The notes beneath the pieces were generated by a model that saw nothing but the letters and a program-made list of their open reading frames with translations, was not told where the DNA came from and made no database searches. 32,000 bases of DNA, from NCBI RefSeq assembly GCF_000698785.1, contig NZ_CP007536.1:150001-182000 (forward strand), in the 5' to 3' direction. The position numbers were made by a program, and so were the translations under genes. The DNA is from Nitrososphaera viennensis EN76 (GTDB lineage: Archaea; Thermoproteota; Nitrososphaeria; Nitrososphaerales; Nitrososphaeraceae). Positions 4,976 to 11,205 of the stretch are shown piece after piece; within the stretch, counting starts at the first letter, position 1, and every line of letters begins with the position of its first letter.

Positions 4976-5365
4976 ATGTCGGGCAGTAGCAGTGGCGGCA
5001 GCACCGCCCCTCCGCCAGAGAAAAAAACCCTGATGACGGAGTTTATCGACTTTCTAAAGACCTTCGGGGTGATAGGGCTTGCCATCGCGTTTGTAATCGG
5101 CGCTGCCGCGTCAAAGCTCGTGACTGCGTTTGTAAACGACATAATAACCCCGATAGTCGGGCTTGCGCTTCCGTCCGGCGACCTGAGGACACTGGCTTAC
5201 AACGTTACAAATACTGCTACTGGGGCGACGTCGAAATTCTCGTACGGAGACCTGATAGCAAACATCATAGACTTTCTCATCATTGCCTTCATAGTCTTTT
5301 TGATGTACAAGCTCCTCTCCCGGTACAAGGTGCTCGGGGTAGAGGACAAGACGAAAAAGACCTAA
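4976..5365 (+). CDS. mscL: Large-conductance mechanosensitive channel MscL
   Basis: TM1 motif GVIGLAIAFVIGAAASKLVTAFVNDIITPIVG. TM2 is IIDFLIIAFIVFLMYKLL. 129 aa. Confidence 0.9.
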   Translation: MSGSSSGGSTAPPPEKKTLMTEFIDFLKTFGVIGLAIAFVIGAAASKLVTAFVNDIITPIVGLALPSGDLRTLAYNVTNTATGATSKFSYGDLIANIIDFLIIAFIVFLMYKLLSRYKVLGVEDKTKKT

Positions 5366-6768
5366 GAGGGGAGCCTTGCAACAAACTGGCCGTGGCCGAG
5401 GGCGTCCTGCGCCACCTGGCCTGCTTCCATCACCACTCTTCCGCGCACCATCGTGAGCACCGGCCACCCCTTCAATCTCCAGCCGTCGTAGATGGTATAG
5501 TCAGAGTATGACTGCAACAGCTCTGGCGTCACCTTTTGCTCAAGGTCCATGTCGACCATCACTATGTCGGCGTCAGAGCCCTGCTGTATCGTGCCCTTTC
5601 TCGGGTACATGCCAAATATCCTTGCGGCGTTGTAACTCGTTATTTCTGCCACCCTTTCGATGCCTATCCTGTCGCCGTTGACGCCCCGGTCAAGGAGCAC
5701 GGGGAGCATGGTGGCAATGCCTGGAAAGCCGGCAAGAGCCGACCACAGGTCGCCGTTTCCCATCTTTATGTCAAGCCTGTTTGCCACGTGGTCCGTGCCC
5801 ACGGTGTCGATTATGCCGTTTCGAAGCGCCGACCAGACGCTCTGCACGTCGCTCTTTGAGCGTATGGGGGGCACCACCTTTCCTGTCATGCTTGCAAAGT
5901 CATAGGTGTGGGTGAGGTACTGCGGGCAGGTCTCGATGTAATAGTTGGCGTTTCCCTTTTGCCTCTCTGCAAGTATCGCGTCAAGCGCAGCGTTTGAGCC
6001 AATGTGCACAAAGTAGAGGTTTGCGCCAAACTTCCTGCCAAGGGCTGACACCTTGGCGACGCTTTCTGCCTCTGACTGCGCCGGCCTGCAGTCCGACCAC
6101 GCCTTCAAGCCCGTCATGCCCTTTTCCTTTCCGCGACGGATGTGCTCTGCGCACACTGCGGGGTTTTCCGCGTGCACGAGGATTGTCGAGTGCTCTTTTG
6201 CGCCGCCCTCGACTATGGCGGACAGGAGCGAGTCGTCCATGTTTACCTCGCCGTCCTTGACCCCGTGCTCGCCGGGCTCCAGGTCCATGTATATGTGGTT
6301 GAGGTCCGCCCCTAGGTTCATGTATATTTTCAGCGAATTGATGCCCTTTTTCTTCAGGTAGGGTATGTCCTTGACCTGCTCCTTTCTCAATATCGACGCG
6401 TGGATCGCATAGTCGATGCAGTGCGCGCCCCTGCTTGCCGCAAGCTGCCTTTCGACTGCGCGGTAGTCGCTGTCGTAGAGGCGCAGCATGCGCATCATGG
6501 TCGTGACGCCGCCGACTGCCGCCGAGCGCGACTCTGTACGCGCCGCTTCGTCAATCGGGGTGTAGACGCCATAGTGGACGTGCGGGTCTATTGCGCCTGG
6601 CAAAACATACTTGCCGGCCGCGTTTATCTTTCTCGATGCGCTTGCGTTCTGCGACGGCTTTAGCGTCTTTATCCTGCCGTCTTCAATGGCGATGTCGCAC
6701 TCGACGACTCCGACCTTGGGTATGACGGCCGACGCGTTTGTGACGAGTATGTCGCAAGAGTTTTCCAT
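5362..6768 (-). CDS. Cyclic amidohydrolase, D-hydantoinase/dihydropyrimidinase-like (metal-dependent amidohydrolase superfamily)
   Basis: 468 aa. Metal-ligand motif GAIDPHVHYG. Candidate carboxylated-Lys context SLKIYMNL. Also VHAENP, FVHIGS and GTDH. Its stop overlaps the mscL stop by 4 nt (convergent). The substrate cannot be assigned from sequence. Confidence 0.85.
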   Translation of the reverse strand: MENSCDILVTNASAVIPKVGVVECDIAIEDGRIKTLKPSQNASASRKINAAGKYVLPGAIDPHVHYGVYTPIDEAARTESRSAAVGGVTTMMRMLRLYDSDYRAVERQLAASRGAHCIDYAIHASILRKEQVKDIPYLKKKGINSLKIYMNLGADLNHIYMDLEPGEHGVKDGEVNMDDSLLSAIVEGGAKEHSTILVHAENPAVCAEHIRRGKEKGMTGLKAWSDCRPAQSEAESVAKVSALGRKFGANLYFVHIGSNAALDAILAERQKGNANYYIETCPQYLTHTYDFASMTGKVVPPIRSKSDVQSVWSALRNGIIDTVGTDHVANRLDIKMGNGDLWSALAGFPGIATMLPVLLDRGVNGDRIGIERVAEITSYNAARIFGMYPRKGTIQQGSDADIVMVDMDLEQKVTPELLQSYSDYTIYDGWRLKGWPVLTMVRGRVVMEAGQVAQDALGHGQFVARLPS

Positions 6769-6877: not shown

Positions 6878-6950
6878 GGGCTGGTAGTTCAGGGGTAGTA
6901 ATGCTCGCTTCGCAAGCGAGAGGTCGCGGGTTCAAATCCCGCCCAGTCCA
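6878..6950 (+). tRNA. tRNA-Ala (anticodon CGC), 73 nt, no intron, CCA not encoded
   Basis: Manual cloverleaf. Acceptor gggctgg/ccagtcc includes the Ala identity pair G3:U70. Anticodon stem ctcgc/gcgag with loop ttCGCaa. 5-nt variable loop. T arm gcggg-ttcaaat-cccgc. Discriminator A. The D stem is weak (3 bp). Confidence 0.9.
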
Positions 6951-6953
6951 TTA

Positions 6954-7004
6954 CTTACGCGGACTCGACTACTGACGCAATTTTACGTAGGGGGTCCGCG
7001 TAAG
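6954..7004 (+). repeat. 11-bp perfect inverted repeat (hairpin) abutting the tRNA 3' end
   Basis: cttacgcggac (6954-6964) and gtccgcgtaag (6994-7004) are exact reverse complements with a 29-nt loop. Confidence 0.8.
6956..6973 (+). repeat. Left terminal inverted repeat of the 6951-8421 segment
   Basis: tacgcggactcgactact compared with the reverse complement of 8394-8411 (tacgcggactcaaccact). 16/18 identical, with an 11-nt exact core. Confidence 0.6.
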
Positions 7005-7363
7005 ATGCCAACCAAGCTGTCAACCATCGTAGAAAAGTGCATAGAAGCGATTCGCAACAAGATCCTTTCTGGCTGCCAAAGCAAGGCATATTCGGGTGTT
7101 TAAAGTCGGAATATGAAGAAAAACACCCGCGCCCGATAATGGCACAGCACGAGCGCGGGATGTAATGACTCTTGGCCGTGGCTTACAACTTCGGGTGATC
7201 AGGGAAGCAGATTTTGTCTATTCCTCGGGGATTCTCACCCCATTATCAGACGACTTTGCTTAGCCTGACCCCGTCGTTAATGATGCTAGAAGCTTTGTAC
7301 TATATCAGAGAGGAGAACATCTTTAGGGAATTAAACGAGTATTTGCCTCATTAAACTGGTAGC

Positions 7364-7597
7364 TTGAAGAAGTGCAAAGTTAAGAATCTTGTAGAGGCTA
7401 ATTACGGTGATTCAGACATGTCCACCTGCGAAAAATGCACCTGCAAGACTGCTACGAGCTTGATGGAATATGAGGAAGGCGGCAAGAGGGCTTTTCGATA
7501 TAGCGGCAAGCTGTTTTGCCAGGAATGCTATCTCGAGATACTGCGAACCAACGAACCAAGGCAGGCAGAGATGCTGCTGTTACAACTGTCAAGCTAA
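7364..7597 (+). CDS. Small Zn-ribbon-like protein (77 aa from TTG 7364; 59 aa from ATG 7418)
   Basis: Cys pairs CEKCTC ... CQEC. Lies inside the tRNA-linked element. Confidence 0.4.
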   Translation: MKKCKVKNLVEANYGDSDMSTCEKCTCKTATSLMEYEEGGKRAFRYSGKLFCQECYLEILRTNEPRQAEMLLLQLSS

Positions 7598-7609
7598 AGA
7601 ATCAAGGGG

Positions 7610-7840
7610 ATGACGCGCGTCATACCCTCATTTTCCAGTATGACGCTGAAAACAGTAAGGGCAGGCATACGTCTGGACAGGGAAGGCATTGACTTTTTGA
7701 GAGGTCGACGTCTTTGGCAATACATCAGAAGGCGCAAGGTGGTGCATCAAATTTTGCAGACTCTGTGGCATTCAGGCCATCAAGAAGATAAAATCAAAAG
7801 TCTAAACCATCGAACCCTTTGCGAGCAACTTGGAGCATAG
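7610..7840 (+). CDS. Hypothetical basic protein (76 aa)
   Basis: ORF only. No motif. Lies within the element. Confidence 0.3.
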   Translation: MTRVIPSFSSMTLKTVRAGIRLDREGIDFLRGRRLWQYIRRRKVVHQILQTLWHSGHQEDKIKSLNHRTLCEQLGA

Positions 7841-7867
7841 ACTAAAGAAGCAGGCCTCATACTGCTT

Positions 7868-8002
7868 CTAAAGATGCACATCTCCATGATGTTTGGCCTT
7901 GTTCTTGTGCCTTTCAAGTGACTCTTTGGTGGTAAATGTCATTTTGCATATCTTGCATCTGAAGCCTTGTGAATCCTTCGCGCGATTAAACGGATTTTTC
8001 AT
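7868..8002 (-). CDS. 44-aa single C2H2 zinc-finger protein (not in the ORF track)
   Basis: Hand translation: MKNPFNRAKDSQGFRCKICKMTFTTKESLERHKNKAKHHGDVHL. It fits F-x-C-x2-C-x3-F-x5-L-x2-H-x5-H exactly. Confidence 0.55.
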   Translation of the reverse strand: MKNPFNRAKDSQGFRCKICKMTFTTKESLERHKNKAKHHGDVHL

Positions 8003-8092
8003 GATCAGGAGTGCTGATTGGCAGTGGTTATAAAAGATCACTTAACCATGTTAAGTCAGGCGCCCAGTGGCTATATCTCACACTCAATCAAG

Positions 8093-8293
8093 TTAATCTT
8101 TCGTCTCTCTTGACACCTTTACTACTTTACAATACGATAGAAATCCTTTCTACGTCCACATCCATTCTGGCGAGTCACCGGGCTGTAGGCGCGGGGCATG
8201 AACAATTTCCATAGGAATAGAGGCTGAAAGGGTGTTTCCATCTGGCCTGTCCCGCACCTTGGACCTCGGAGAAAGATACTTTGGCTTAGTCAT
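8093..8293 (-). pseudogene. AbrB/SpoVT-like (swapped-hairpin) small DNA-binding ORF interrupted by an in-frame TAG at 8150-8152
   Basis: Hand translation: MTKPKYLSPRSKVRDRPDGNTLSASIPMEIVHAPRLQPGDSPEWMWT*KGFLSYCKVVKVSRETKD*. The segment SASIPMEIV...LQPGDSPEW resembles the AbrB/MazE/VapB core (v-t-I-P-k-e-i-r...l-k-p-G-D-k-v-e). It could instead be an intact 47-aa product. Confidence 0.35.
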
Positions 8294-8393
8294 GTAATAC
8301 ACTGTAAAATTGAAAACAACGTTATGTATTACACAGAAGTATCACATTGCGGTCAAAAATGACTCCAACAACACTTCAATGTCAAATAAAAGA

Positions 8394-8411
8394 AGTGGTT
8401 GAGTCCGCGTA
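8394..8411 (-). repeat. Right terminal inverted repeat of the 6951-8421 segment
   Basis: agtggttgagtccgcgta is the reverse complement of tacgcggactcaaccact. It pairs with 6956-6973. Confidence 0.6.
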
Positions 8412-8421
8412 CACGCCATAC

Positions 8422-8440
8422 TCAAATCCCGCCCAGTCCA
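8422..8440 (+). repeat. att-like direct repeat 1: exact copy of tRNA-Ala nt 55-73
   Basis: tcaaatcccgcccagtcca is identical to 6932-6950. Confidence 0.85.
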
Positions 8441-8501
8441 CTTCGACGTTGCGGAGGTTGCCAGCATCTTTTGAATGCGATTCGCCTAGTTAAATATCAT
8501 T

Positions 8502-8756
8502 TTAGGCACGTGCGTTTTCCCTAACGGGAAATGTTGTCTTTTGCCTGCTTGTCAATCTTTTGTGCAAATCATAAAGGCTAGAAAGGAATATTGTAAGTGC
8601 CCCAAATATTACAATAAGTTGATTGCCCTCCATGTGGGCAAACAATGTGATTCCTAACATGCAACTAGCGTAAAACACGCCGGCACTCCATTTATGAATT
8701 AAGAAATGGCCAAGGCCCGGGAATGTGACTCCCCAAAAATATGCAATATTTGGCAT
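8502..8756 (-). CDS. Small membrane protein (84 aa from ATG 8756; the ORF extends to GTG 8843)
   Basis: Hydrophobic segments WGVTFPGLGHFLI, AGVFYASCMLGITLFA and LIVIFGALTIFLSSL. Confidence 0.4.
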   Translation of the reverse strand: MPNIAYFWGVTFPGLGHFLIHKWSAGVFYASCMLGITLFAHMEGNQLIVIFGALTIFLSSLYDLHKRLTSRQKTTFPVRENARA

Positions 8757-8896
8757 TTGGAGAGTTCTCGCACACGAGTCAAAAGAATACGAGCATGTAA
8801 ACGAGTTTACAGATGCCCGCGGTGAAAATCCAAGAAACCACAAACAGAATAATGCCCGGAATAATGGCTAAGCACCGATTTTAAGACTGGACATTA

Positions 8897-8919
8897 CGGG
8901 TTCAAATCCAGCCCAGTCC
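8897..8919 (+). repeat. att-like direct repeat 2: copy of tRNA-Ala nt 50-72 with one mismatch
   Basis: cgggttcaaatccAgcccagtcc compared with 6927-6949 cgggttcaaatcccgcccagtcc. It lies 2 nt from the stop of the 8922..9263 ORF. Confidence 0.8.
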
Positions 8920-8921
8920 GC

Positions 8922-9263
8922 TCACTTTCTACGCTGCTGCATTTGCTGTTGTGCTTTTTTGAATTCCAGTATGATGCCTCTCTTTGCGTCCACGCCAAAT
9001 GAAAGCAATTCTCCAGTTTCTAGCGGGATGGATTCTACAACCACGCCACATGAAGGGCAACGCAGGTCATCTATGGATTCTGTGATTGATGATGCACACC
9101 AATAGCAAGAATTGCACAGCAGGAAACTAGCAGCACTGGACCTGCCCGAGGGTCTCTGCCCCTCTGTCCTTGATAGCTGCTGTTCTCCCAAGTTGCCCAT
9201 AGGGAATTCGCCAGTAGGGGATAGCACTATAAGAATATTCTGCAATTGCAGTTGATTGCTCAA
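8922..9263 (-). CDS. Zn-ribbon protein (113 aa from TTG 9263; 92 aa from ATG 9200)
   Basis: CNSCYWC ... CPSCG cysteine pairs. Gln-rich basic tail. Confidence 0.45.
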   Translation of the reverse strand: MSNQLQLQNILIVLSPTGEFPMGNLGEQQLSRTEGQRPSGRSSAASFLLCNSCYWCASSITESIDDLRCPSCGVVVESIPLETGELLSFGVDAKRGIILEFKKAQQQMQQRRK

Positions 9264-9333
9264 TAAAATTTTCTTTTTTGGTTAAAACCTAGCCTCAATA
9301 TCCTGATTTAACAAGGGAACTGATGCCGATGGT

Positions 9334-9350
9334 GCGAATCCTCCAGTCCA
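9334..9350 (+). repeat. Possible degenerate third copy of the tRNA 3' end
   Basis: gcgaatcctccagtcca. The last 8 nt (ccagtcca) match 6943-6950 exactly, and gaatcc resembles the T-loop aaatcc. An indel and mismatches lie between. Weak. Confidence 0.25.
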
Positions 9351-9353
9351 TTT

Positions 9354-9614
9354 GTGGTCTACTGCCGTAAATCTGCCATGCCCGAAAGCGCGGCCACATC
9401 TCTATTAGACAGAATATCCAATCAAGATGTCATGGTGGAAACAAAAAAGTTGCTTCTTGAGGCTGAAATCCTAATTGACGTGCCCAAAGATATCGTCGAG
9501 GATGAGGAAAGACTGGATGATGTCACACAAGGACTAGGCAAGGCTCTCACCAAGGGGCTCTACGACCAAGGAATAGACTTTCAGGTTAGCCGGCTAAGCT
9601 TTAGGCTGAAATAA
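9354..9614 (+). CDS. Hypothetical acidic protein (86 aa; ATG at 9378 is an alternative)
   Basis: ORF only. Confidence 0.35.
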   Translation: MVYCRKSAMPESAATSLLDRISNQDVMVETKKLLLEAEILIDVPKDIVEDEERLDDVTQGLGKALTKGLYDQGIDFQVSRLSFRLK

Positions 9615-9766
9615 AATAAGGTGTCGCCGAGCCGTCATTATTGATTGCGCGGCTGACCTAAAGCGCGATAAAACCTCCTCAATAATGTGTGTGTATATCC
9701 TAAAATGCCATGCCGTAATGGTTTCGTTTATGTAGATTGATCGCGTATTAATAATACAGATGCAAC

Positions 9767-10072
9767 ATGGGGGCGGTTTTCAGGCCCGGAGATATAACAA
9801 AGGGTCGCAAAAGCATCATACAGAATGCCCTGAAAGACACCCATCCAGATATTAGAAAACAGATCCTGGACCTACTCAGCTCCTGGGAGGGGACGAAATC
9901 GGAAGAAAAACTGATGGTGATGATGGGAAAGGAGAAAGCTGAAACATTCCTCAAAGAGATCTCCAAGCAAGAAGAAAAGAGGGATAATAGCGTTAACGAT
10001 AAAGTGCAAATTACAAGGGCAGGAATGCCTGCGGAAGAGGAGGAAGAAGAAAGAGCCGCGAAAAAGGATTAA
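9767..10072 (+). CDS. Hypothetical protein with a Glu/Lys-rich tail (101 aa)
   Basis: ATG start. Charged, low-complexity C-terminus. No motif. Confidence 0.4.
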   Translation: MGAVFRPGDITKGRKSIIQNALKDTHPDIRKQILDLLSSWEGTKSEEKLMVMMGKEKAETFLKEISKQEEKRDNSVNDKVQITRAGMPAEEEEEERAAKKD

Positions 10073-10665
10073 ACACTTGGAATAGAAGGTCAAGTGCGCC
10101 AAAATGGTAATAGCTGTTGTTGGCTATAGTCTAATGCGACAGAAAAAGAGATCATGCGCTTTTCTAGATGTTCGTGCAGTAGAGTCGAAGAAGCGTTCCT
10201 GCGCATAATTAACAAGATATCATAATCAACAATAAAACAAAGGAGAGGATTATTTTGGAATCAGCCGCCGTCATCCTTTACAAGACCGGCTGCCTGAAAG
10301 AAGCTGGTCAGTGCGTGGACATCGTTTATCTTGTAATAGTTTTGCATCGCGCTAATCATTGCATTATCGTAGTATAGGCGTCGTGACATCTGCATTGGTA
10401 TCTACAGAACTATTGGTGTTAAGCGTACTTGTCAAAAGTGATCAGAGCAAACAGCCAACGATGTAACGCTGTCGCAGAATCCGGTATATTCTTTCAGGTT
10501 CTTGGCCGGCCCGTCAAAATTGAGTCATTGTCGAATCGATGCTGCAGCCATTATTCTTCAGATAACAAATCGCCTTGACAAACTGACAGTCAATGGTACG
10601 CAAGTTACCTGTGCCCCAAAACTTTTGAAATAACTCATTTTACCCACTTTGACGTAGACGATGTG

Positions 10666-11079
10666 ATGCAGGAAGACCGAAGCCCCGATGGCTCTGAAAA
10701 GCAGGAAGGTGAATTCATATGCGTTGCCACTTTTCTTCCGCTAAAAAGCTGGAAGTACATGCTGCCTTTTCAGCTAATGACGTCAAAAGTGTTGAAACAG
10801 GCAAAGAAAAGCAAAGGGATGGTCAACTATGCCGTCAAGGCTAATTTTCCAAAGAAGCATTTCTGGACACTATCAATCTGGAAAGACCAGGATTCGTTCA
10901 GGAACTTTGTCATGGCAGAGCCGCATGCCACTGCCATTGCAAAATTCAGCAGATGGGCCGGCGATGGTTCAGCGTTTGTGGAATGGGCAAGTTCAGACGG
11001 CTCTATCGACTGGGCGGAGGCCCTGAAGAGGCTGCAGAGCCCTACTTTTTACTATGGCAATAAAAACACTGGTGCCTGA
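10666..11079 (+). CDS. Small alpha/beta protein, possibly of the DUF3291/ABM-like dimeric barrel type
   Basis: 137 aa from ATG 10666 (the ORF track starts at GTG 10663). The family call rests only on weak recollection of FLPLKSW...NYAVKA...FWTLSIWKD...F patterns. Confidence 0.55.
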   Translation: MQEDRSPDGSEKQEGEFICVATFLPLKSWKYMLPFQLMTSKVLKQAKKSKGMVNYAVKANFPKKHFWTLSIWKDQDSFRNFVMAEPHATAIAKFSRWAGDGSAFVEWASSDGSIDWAEALKRLQSPTFYYGNKNTGA

Positions 11080-11205
11080 ACGGTTACGTCAAACTGTCGC
11101 CGGATCTGGTTGCGCCTCTCTGCCGCCAAATATTTTTTCCACCTGGGGATTCTTGCCGGCCCTCCTTTTTGCCTGTACGATAGGTTGCTACATGTTCTCT
11201 GCTGT

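Follow-up and report, generated by a model that had tools for sequence, protein, structure and literature searches.

Two tandem insertions at the 3' end of tRNA-Ala(CGC) in Nitrososphaera viennensis EN76, probable integrase-less remnants of integrative elements

In the 32-kb stretch of Nitrososphaera viennensis EN76 DNA analysed here (the window), a tRNA-Ala(CGC) gene is followed by a 1.47-kb segment, 6951-8421, which is flanked by direct repeats and carries inverted repeats close to its ends. The first-pass annotation compared these ends with those of transposons and casposons, found no enzyme gene between them, and proposed a MITE-like element mobilised in trans. The locus raises the question of what kind of DNA has settled at this tRNA gene, and by what kind of recombination it arrived there.

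The tRNA gene itself is intact, as judged by ARAGORN and by an Rfam tRNA score of 60 bits. Its last 19 nt form the direct repeat that had been reported, TCAAATCCCGCCCAGTCCA, which is exact at 6932-6950 and 8422-8440; none of 100 shuffled sequences gave three matches. A third and longer copy of the tRNA end is present at 8897-8920, the pattern of the tRNA-end/att segment being TCAAATCCC(G/A)CCCAGTCCA. The features that define the boundaries are as follows.

6878-6950, plus strand: tRNA-Ala(CGC) gene, the integration target (ARAGORN, Rfam, repeat search)
6932-6950, plus strand: attL core, the last 19 nt of tRNA-Ala(CGC) (repeat search)
6951-8421 (6951-8440 with DR2), plus strand: unit A, the tRNA-proximal inserted unit, 1471 bp, missing from related genomes
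8422-8440, plus strand: DR2, exact 19-bp copy of the tRNA 3' end, att site at the junction of units A and B (repeat search)
8441-8896 (8441-8920 with DR3), plus strand: unit B, the second inserted unit, 456 bp, missing from empty-site genomes
8897-8920, plus strand: DR3, CGGGTTCAAATCCaGCCCAGTCCg, 24-nt copy of the tRNA 3' end with 2 mismatches (22/24; repeat search)
8922-9263, minus strand: 113-aa Zn-ribbon-like ORF, native neighbour of tRNA-Ala (protein 82.5% identical in the empty-site relatives by tblastn)

The empty site is found in two related Nitrososphaera genomes, that of the closest relative (L124/L125), whose amidohydrolase is 94% identical, and that of N. evergladensis SR1 (L144). 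Both have one copy of the repeat, and in both tRNA-Ala runs directly into the homologue of the window from 8921 onward. Positions 8898-9286 of the window align with the tRNA end and the downstream flank of these loci, and orthologous DNA at the tRNA-Ala flanks is 78-92% identical. The third tRNA-end copy and the empty sites together indicate that 6951-8920 is an insertion of 1970 bp composed of two tandem units, both of which terminate in a tRNA 3'-end copy. The two tRNA-proximal copies of this end are exact and the distal one is decayed. Judging from the alignments, DR3, which is contiguous with the native downstream flank, appears to be the displaced original tRNA end (attR), and the ORF at 8922-9263 marks where the insertion ends. 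The earlier description of the 1.47-kb segment as a discrete insert holds with regard to its duplicated-target bounds and the empty sites, but it has to be amended in extent because, given the third copy, the segment is only the tRNA-proximal unit of a two-unit insertion. Low GC was considered as a sign of foreign origin and rejected, since native intergenic DNA at the locus has an equally low GC of 0.44 and this property is uninformative here.

The inverted repeat of unit A was also borne out. Its arms, 6956-6973 and 8394-8411, match at 16 of 18 positions with an 11-nt exact core, and 0 of 1000 shuffles of the two 40-100-nt ends of the unit reached 16/18 or an 11-mer. It joins only the two ends of unit A, and neither the ends of unit B nor mixed pairs; unit B lacks the motif, and its ends share no inverted repeat. 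The arms are subterminal, lying 5 nt (TTACT) from the direct repeat at the left and 10 nt (CACGCCATAC) at the right, and the outermost nucleotides of the unit, TTACT and GTATGGCGTG, do not match. With up to one mismatch, the core GAGTCCGCGTA occurs at only three places in 32 kb (0.21 expected), and within the window the motif is limited to about 60 bp around the att copies.

6954-6973, minus strand: motif copy a, with the core GAGTCCGCGTAAG on the minus strand at 6954-6966 (motif, repeat and fold searches)
6992-7010, plus strand: motif copy b, GGGTCCGCGTAAGATGCCA (motif, repeat and fold searches)
8394-8418, plus strand: motif copy c, GAGTCCGCGTACACGCCA (motif and repeat searches)

Copy a, which starts 5 nt inside attL, comprises the left arm of the inverted repeat and the 5' arm of a hairpin. 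Copy b provides the 3' arm of that hairpin and repeats copy c in direct orientation; the likeness between 6994-7010 and 8403-8418 had been noticed previously. Copy c contains the right arm of the inverted repeat, which stops 10 nt short of DR2. The hairpin, 6954-6964 with 6994-7004, is a perfect one of 11 bp, as described before; it begins 4 nt past tRNA-Ala and, folded as DNA, has an energy of -14.5 kcal/mol, which makes it far more stable than shuffled sequence (z = -4.5).

In a circle made by rejoining the ends of unit A, the 19-bp core has copies c and a of G(A/G)GTCCGCGTA on its two sides; they form an 18-bp inverted repeat whose arms are separated by 34 bp, and copy b follows at a distance of 25 bp. 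In the computed fold of the reconstructed junction, the arms pair into an 18-bp stem and the core occupies its loop (z = -4.1). Such an arrangement around the att core favours an alternative that the first-pass annotation had mentioned, namely a recombinase arm or binding site, and the three copies may be regarded as candidate recombinase- or accessory-protein-binding sites of an attP. A spacing of 34 bp is too large for classical core-type sites, so the role of the arms is conjecture. We know of no att site of Thaumarchaeota that has been characterised biochemically. The arrangement is reminiscent of the lambda-type attP with its arm-type Int/Xis sites, in which several copies of short motifs occur in both orientations on both sides of a core shared with attB (PMC8371274); unit A differs in having three copies only, another spacing and no known protein.

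The coding content of the insertion is modest.

7085-7705, plus strand: block of a conserved non-coding leader and a Zn-ribbon ORF, with a chromosomal counterpart of 83-84% identity in other Nitrososphaera
7418-7597, plus strand: 59-aa Zn-ribbon ORF, intact, with real homologues
7868-8041, minus strand: small C2H2 zinc-finger ORF, 57 aa (Pfam zf-C2H2, E = 5e-5)
8502-8843, minus strand: orphan 113-aa ORF, the sole ORF of unit B, with no homologues

In agreement with the initial reading, a Pfam search of 6951-8920 in six frames, and of those larger window ORFs that were scanned, detected no integrase, Cas1 or transposase domain; at E <= 1, none of the six frames matched a Phage_integrase-like profile. 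The insertion contains no virus or plasmid hallmark gene, and PHROGs gave nothing useful. The segment is, however, not wholly non-coding, as the two small ORFs of unit A demonstrate. The chromosomal counterpart of 7085-7705 is syntenic in two other species (L137 and L143), where the conserved order is a PqqC/TENA-like gene, tRNA-Met, a variable stretch, the block, a 57-aa gene and Nramp. The leader, about 180-300 nt of non-coding DNA located at 7120-7300, is highly conserved, and the Zn-ribbon ORF shows 10-14 synonymous versus 7-9 non-synonymous codon changes. The homologous block was itself tested as an element remnant, and no repeats of the tRNA-Met end were found around it in L137 and L143. 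The zinc-finger ORF, which likely starts at Met14 to give 44 aa, is 61-63% identical to 58-aa proteins (P0236 and P0283) in soil Nitrososphaera contigs, and the genes of these relatives stand in a conserved chromosomal synteny of nitroreductase, ZnF and PNPOx. A full HMMER search with this ORF returned mostly eukaryotic poly-zinc-finger proteins, its true relatives being only the two 58-aa proteins. A composite protein query joining the zinc-finger and unit-B ORFs with a 76-aa ORF found nothing at E <= 0.01 among 5.8 billion proteins. By these comparisons, unit A carries as its cargo two tiny genes for zinc-binding proteins, whose nearest relatives reside in the chromosomes of other Nitrososphaera. 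A bacterial promoter/terminator scan was uninformative, the host being an archaeon.

We consider it probable, though by no means certain, that 6951-8920 represents two decayed remnants of site-specific integrative elements, lacking an integrase and arranged in tandem at the 3' end of tRNA-Ala(CGC), of the sort known as cryptic integrated elements or CIMEs. The parent of unit B would have recombined with the tRNA gene through a 24-nt identity, displacing the original end (now DR3) and supplying a new one. A 19-nt identity beginning in the T-loop may then have allowed the parent of unit A to recombine with the restored tRNA, giving rise to DR2. The recombinase, presumably a tyrosine-type integrase, would since have been lost from both units, or may never have been present in them. 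The inverted repeats of unit A would in that case be not transposon ends but recombinase or accessory-protein sites flanking the attP core, and the parent element of this unit probably circulated inside the genus, capturing host DNA.

The closest parallels include elements of the same host group, for which a 19-bp att site in the 3'-distal portion of a tRNA gene is typical. Thaumarchaeal integrase-borne elements have att sites of 8-26 bp (median 17), 39 of 68 reside in tRNA genes, and tandem re-use of one site by tyrosine-recombinase elements is known (PMC6563490). The insertion shares with the cryptic integrated elements of Thaumarchaeota the host genus, the 3'-distal tRNA target, the short att (19 and 24 bp here) and tandem re-use; theirs, however, are 5-75 kb long and encode a XerC/D-like integrase, whereas units A and B, 1.5 and 0.46 kb, are integrase-less and uncatalogued. 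In Streptococcus, CIMEs (cis-mobilizable elements) are ICE or IME remnants decayed to attL and attR only, which accrete in tandem at tRNA genes (PMC5704250). The insertion likewise keeps attL and attR without integrase or transfer genes (six-frame Pfam search and scanned window ORFs), which is what defines a CIME, and resembles CIMEs also in its tandem position at a tRNA 3' end after successive integrations (PMC5704250). CIMEs differ in being bacterial, in their experimentally shown cis-mobilisation and in deriving from known ICE/IME parents, whereas no parent of units A and B was found in the collections searched. Unlike an SSV-type ('suicidal') integrase element, the locus has no int(N) or int(C) fragments beside the att copies.

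Some observations speak against the remnant reading. The relatives of the two recognisable genes are chromosomal and do not belong to MGEs, and virus or plasmid hallmark genes are lacking. No related full-length, integrase-bearing element was found in IMG/VR, the JGI metagenomes, the phage and plasmid collections or the 5.8 billion proteins. The catalogue of integrated elements of N. viennensis places NitVie-E1 at tRNA-Arg and NitVie-E4 at tRNA-Phe, and contains no element or integrase targeting tRNA-Ala (PMC6563490).

Other explanations were weighed against the same evidence. Unit A could be a non-autonomous element with terminal inverted repeats, MITE-like or a miniature casposon, moved by an enzyme encoded elsewhere, the 19-bp repeat being its target-site duplication. 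This would account for matched inverted repeats near both ends, a flanking duplication and the lack of an enzyme gene; moreover, family-2 casposons (AciBoo-C1; NitNCS1-C1 at tRNA-Pro), one of them thaumarchaeal, insert at tRNA 3' ends with target direct repeats and inverted repeats near their ends, and can stand in tandem arrays. We nevertheless find it quite unlikely. The inverted repeats lie inside the unit at unequal offsets, 5 versus 10 nt, with unmatched terminal nucleotides; the duplicated sequence corresponds precisely to the 3' part of the tRNA and restores it, and in the neighbouring unit 24 nt of this tRNA end are duplicated, so the length is not fixed. Inverted repeats of thaumarchaeal casposons are 43-68 nt long with a CCCCCC...TTTAC motif (Krupovic 2019 Table S2), as against 18 nt in unit A, whose end TACGCGGACTC bears no likeness to them. 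Family-2 casposons possess Cas1 and PolB, longer repeats that start at the termini, and 14-15-bp duplications, none of which is seen in unit A, and N. viennensis has no reported casposon. Comparison with a MITE fares no better: unit A measures 1471 bp and has two conserved ORFs with homologues, its inverted repeat is subterminal, and its 19-bp direct repeat is a tRNA end. These features do not support transposon- or casposon-style ends, and a MITE-like, trans-mobilised family has no support either, as no second copy of the termini or the unit turned up in the window, 20 related loci, IMG/VR or the JGI metagenomes. The hairpin and the motif could instead be a structure of the tRNA flank, a terminator or processing signal of tRNA-Ala, which the first-pass annotation had also envisaged and which the position and the stability of the hairpin would suit. 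We find this scarcely credible and refuted by the orthologous loci, because hairpin and motif are missing downstream of tRNA-Ala at all seven orthologous loci without the insertion (L124-L129, L144), where a T-rich tract occupies the place of the hairpin; in addition, the opposite end of the insertion, at a distance of 1.4 kb, carries the motif again, and Rfam gave no match besides the tRNA.

It is also conceivable, though unlikely, that no mobile element was involved, and that illegitimate or homologous recombination moved chromosomal DNA with small genes for zinc proteins to a place beside tRNA-Ala, with the tRNA-end copies as by-products of local duplication. The identity of 7085-7705 to the syntenic chromosomal block equals the orthologous divergence at the tRNA-Ala flanks, the relatives of the zinc-finger ORF are likewise chromosomal and syntenic, and an MGE hallmark gene is lacking. 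Relocation accords poorly, however, with the precise junctions, the exact tRNA 3' part at the end of each unit, the regenerated tRNA and the clean empty sites in relatives, or with a specific motif whose occurrences in the window are confined to the two ends of unit A; random duplication is not expected to bound two different units alike. A cassette-like system, in which small promoter-poor units with tRNA-end-like sites are captured one after another at this tRNA gene by a trans-acting recombinase, which may use the junction in a folded hairpin form, would fit two very small units in tandem (0.46 and 1.47 kb), with one att copy each and no enzyme in either, and a reconstructed junction that places the core in the loop of a stem. 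It seems very unlikely in view of there being two units only, at one locus, of which unit B lacks the motif; no similar arrays were seen at tRNA-Ala in seven related loci, and no candidate recombinase is known. There is a small chance, comparable to that of relocation, that unit A has stayed intact as a miniature integrative element of the non-autonomous kind, which a tRNA-Ala-specific Nitrososphaera integrase acting in trans could still excise and re-integrate. It would then keep a full attP-type site (the core and three copies of the GTCCGCGTA motif) together with two small zinc-binding protein genes, and might be an integrase-dependent counterpart of a MITE, small units being stacked cassette-fashion at the tRNA.

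If the insertion does consist of two decayed integrative element remnants, tRNA-Ala(CGC) would be an uncatalogued integration hot spot, and two integrase-less remnants would be added to the mobilome of this model soil ammonia oxidiser. Relics of this kind escape surveys that start from integrase genes. As a concrete candidate for recombinase-binding sites, the locus offers the motif present in three copies around the att core, and the chromosomal-type cargo hints at gene shuffling among Nitrososphaera genomes via integrative elements. The insertion at tRNA-Ala leaves current concepts unchanged, and would be a fairly ordinary remnant.

Pattern searches in large collections gave chance matches at most. 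The same attP-like arrangement was found nowhere in IMG/VR, the JGI metagenomes or the phage and plasmid collections; unit A had no blastn match among phage or plasmid records, and neither the right junction nor the left hairpin had a match in the JGI metagenomes. A scan of a 596-Gb genome collection with TACGCGGACTCNACNACT yielded, among the matches listed, single chance ones in unrelated bacteria, none of them related to the window, the 16 specified bases being too few for a collection of this size. In IMG/VR, the 19-mer att had 0 matches, the right-junction pattern 3 unrelated ones and the hairpin pattern 7, all of them unrelated palindromes or GC-rich coding DNA; both sets were judged to be due to chance, as were 5 matches to the 18-mer end. 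One of these last, a match of 20 nt, falls within a large ORF on a GC-rich viral contig; by eye the ORF looks terminase-like.

The tRNA-Ala(CGC) gene lies in a region that matches three other records at 100% identity, namely the 2.52-Mb chromosome CP104300.1 (GCA_025244945.1) and two contigs from metagenome or read assemblies, and the proteins of the window group with those of Nitrososphaera. Its surroundings comprise the following features.

5362-6768, minus strand: dihydropyrimidinase-like amidohydrolase, upstream neighbour of tRNA-Ala(CGC)
6878-6950: tRNA-Ala(CGC), the integration target
7868-8041, minus strand: zinc-finger ORF with genuine 58-aa relatives (57-63% identity)
8922-9263, minus strand: native neighbour ORF, conserved in relatives

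Orthologous loci were fetched via homologues of the amidohydrolase, and two relatives were informative: the closest one (L124/L125, amidohydrolase 94% identical) and N. evergladensis SR1 (L144). Neither has anything between tRNA-Ala and the homologue of window 8921 onward; positions 8898-9286 align to the tRNA end and downstream flank of L124 with 86% identity, and 8897-9616 align likewise to L144. It follows that the inserted DNA is 6951-8920 (1970 bp), larger than first reported, and that the tRNA-end copy at 8897-8920 (DR3) represents the original end of the tRNA gene, now displaced. An exact copy at 8422-8440 (DR2) marks the boundary between two units, A (6951-8440) and B (8441-8920). Low GC content was rejected as a mark of insertion, since native intergenic DNA here is equally low.

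The repeats described in the first-pass annotation were all recovered. The 19-bp direct repeat TCAAATCCCGCCCAGTCCA occurs without mismatch at both 6932-6950 and 8422-8440, the inverted repeat 6956-6973/8394-8411 matches at 16 of 18 positions, the perfect 11-bp hairpin 6954-6964/6994-7004 is present, and the 11-mer core, including its claimed third copy, occurs at just these three sites in 32 kb (0.21 expected). The inverted repeat was reproduced in none of 1000 shuffles of the element ends, and it pairs only the left and right ends of unit A, the unit-B ends being unmatched. Both the left-end hairpin (z = -4.5) and the reconstructed unit-A junction (z = -4.1) are far more stable than shuffles. 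Two points had been missed: the inverted-repeat arms are subterminal, 5 nt and 10 nt inside the direct repeats, and there is a third tRNA-end copy, DR3, of 24 nt with two mismatches, which reaches 5 nt deeper into the T-stem than the 19-mer. The true terminal bases of unit A do not match between its ends. Together with the 6 nt that precede it, DR3 can be drawn as a mini-hairpin (GACTGG ... CCAGTC, 8888-8917) resembling an acceptor stem and T-arm; this may be left over from the att architecture of unit B itself, or may be chance.

The earlier interpretation is right in part, in that the inserted unit is discrete, lacks an enzyme and has ends that match, but the proposed transposon- or casposon-style architecture is not supported. 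Thaumarchaeal casposon ends are 43-68 nt long with a common CCCCCC...TTTAC motif (Krupovic 2019 Table S2), whereas the inverted repeat of unit A is 18 nt, subterminal and asymmetric, and is accompanied by neither Cas1 nor PolB. No further copies of the unit-A ends were found in IMG/VR or JGI metagenomes. The alternative that the motif is a conserved hairpin of the tRNA flank is removed by the absence of GTCCGCGTA from all seven orthologous loci. In our reading of the sequence, the footprint is the classical one of successive site-specific integrations, because the repeat is an exact 3' part of the tRNA gene, the tRNA is regenerated, the empty sites are clean and a second unit stands in tandem, with an identity to the same tRNA end of a different length (24 nt for unit B, 19 nt for unit A). 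Thaumarchaeal integrated elements have att sites of 8-26 bp that mostly lie in the 3' portion of a tRNA gene, and they are known to form arrays (PMC6563490). Unit A is probably the younger, as it adjoins the intact tRNA and its DR2 has no changes, against two in DR3, although the statistics for this order are weak.

Six-frame Pfam analysis of the whole insertion returned a C2H2 zinc finger only, with no relic of an integrase, Cas1 or transposase even at E <= 1, and no such gene was found among the larger window ORFs scanned, in agreement with the claimed lack of an enzyme gene. In bacteria, CIMEs (decayed elements) arise when recombination genes are lost while attL and attR are kept, and such remnants accrete at tRNA genes (PMC5704250). 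The published catalogue of N. viennensis integrated elements contains none at tRNA-Ala and no casposon; the locus is a relic of a known kind that the catalogue lacks. A mildly interesting detail is its candidate recombinase-binding motif. Rejoining of the unit-A ends gives ...AGTGGTTGAGTCCGCGTA-N10-[19-bp core]-N5-TACGCGGACTCGACTACT-N18-GGGTCCGCGTAAG..., in which one motif occurs three times, placed on both sides of the core. This resembles the arm or accessory sites of attP (PMC8371274), while the arms, 34 bp apart, are too distant for core-type sites; we therefore only infer a binding role for them.

Within unit A, block 7085-7705 consists of an intact ORF for a 59-aa Zn-ribbon protein and, ahead of it, a non-coding leader whose conservation is striking. 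The block is 83-84% identical to one shared by N. evergladensis (L143) and a sister lineage (L137-L142), a divergence equal to that between the orthologous flanks of tRNA-Ala; on those chromosomes the gene order around the homologue is conserved (PqqC/TENA-like, tRNA-Met, variable stretch, block, 57-aa gene, Nramp). Locatable relatives of the zinc-finger ORF (the P0236 cluster) also sit in conserved chromosomal synteny, and the 76-aa ORF and the unit-B ORF are orphans without homologues in the protein search. The leader (7120-7300, plus strand; L137 9665-9880; L143 9716-9925) shows about 95% conservation among three lineages of Nitrososphaera that are otherwise about 84% identical, exceeding the conservation of the ORF. 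Its predicted fold is a long hairpin (z = -1.9), its sequences vary too little to assess covariation, and it has no Rfam match; it is a candidate ncRNA or regulatory leader. In N. evergladensis (CP007174 2080055-2086877, L143 1-6823), only about 3 kb separates the block homologue from the edge of NitEve-E3, a catalogued element with a Phage_integr_3 integrase at a tRNA-Glu pseudo-site, and the tRNA-Met/tRNA-Glu region is therefore also an integration neighbourhood.

Comparison across the genus presents the flank 3' of tRNA-Ala(CGC) as a variable hot spot. Another lineage (amidohydrolase 91% identical) carries a different insert of about 2 kb directly after this tRNA (L126 6960-9230, L127 3730-6000), encoding a metallo-beta-lactamase-fold protein (weak Anti-Pycsar Apyc1 match) and a DUF3006 protein; no repeat of the tRNA end could be detected there. 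In the window, the native DNA that follows the insertion (8921-11200) is itself rearranged, the order of shared blocks differing from that in relatives; L124, L125 and L144 all lack counterparts of 9617-10218 (101-aa ORF 9767-10072) and 10503-11200 (DUF3291 ORF 10663-11079). A compensatory pair in the tRNA T-stem (6921-6945) differs between lineages, being GCGGG/CCCGC in the window, L126, L127 and L144, and GTGGG/CCCAC in L124, L125, L128 and L129; an element specific to one variant would face a 1-nt att-core mismatch in the other.
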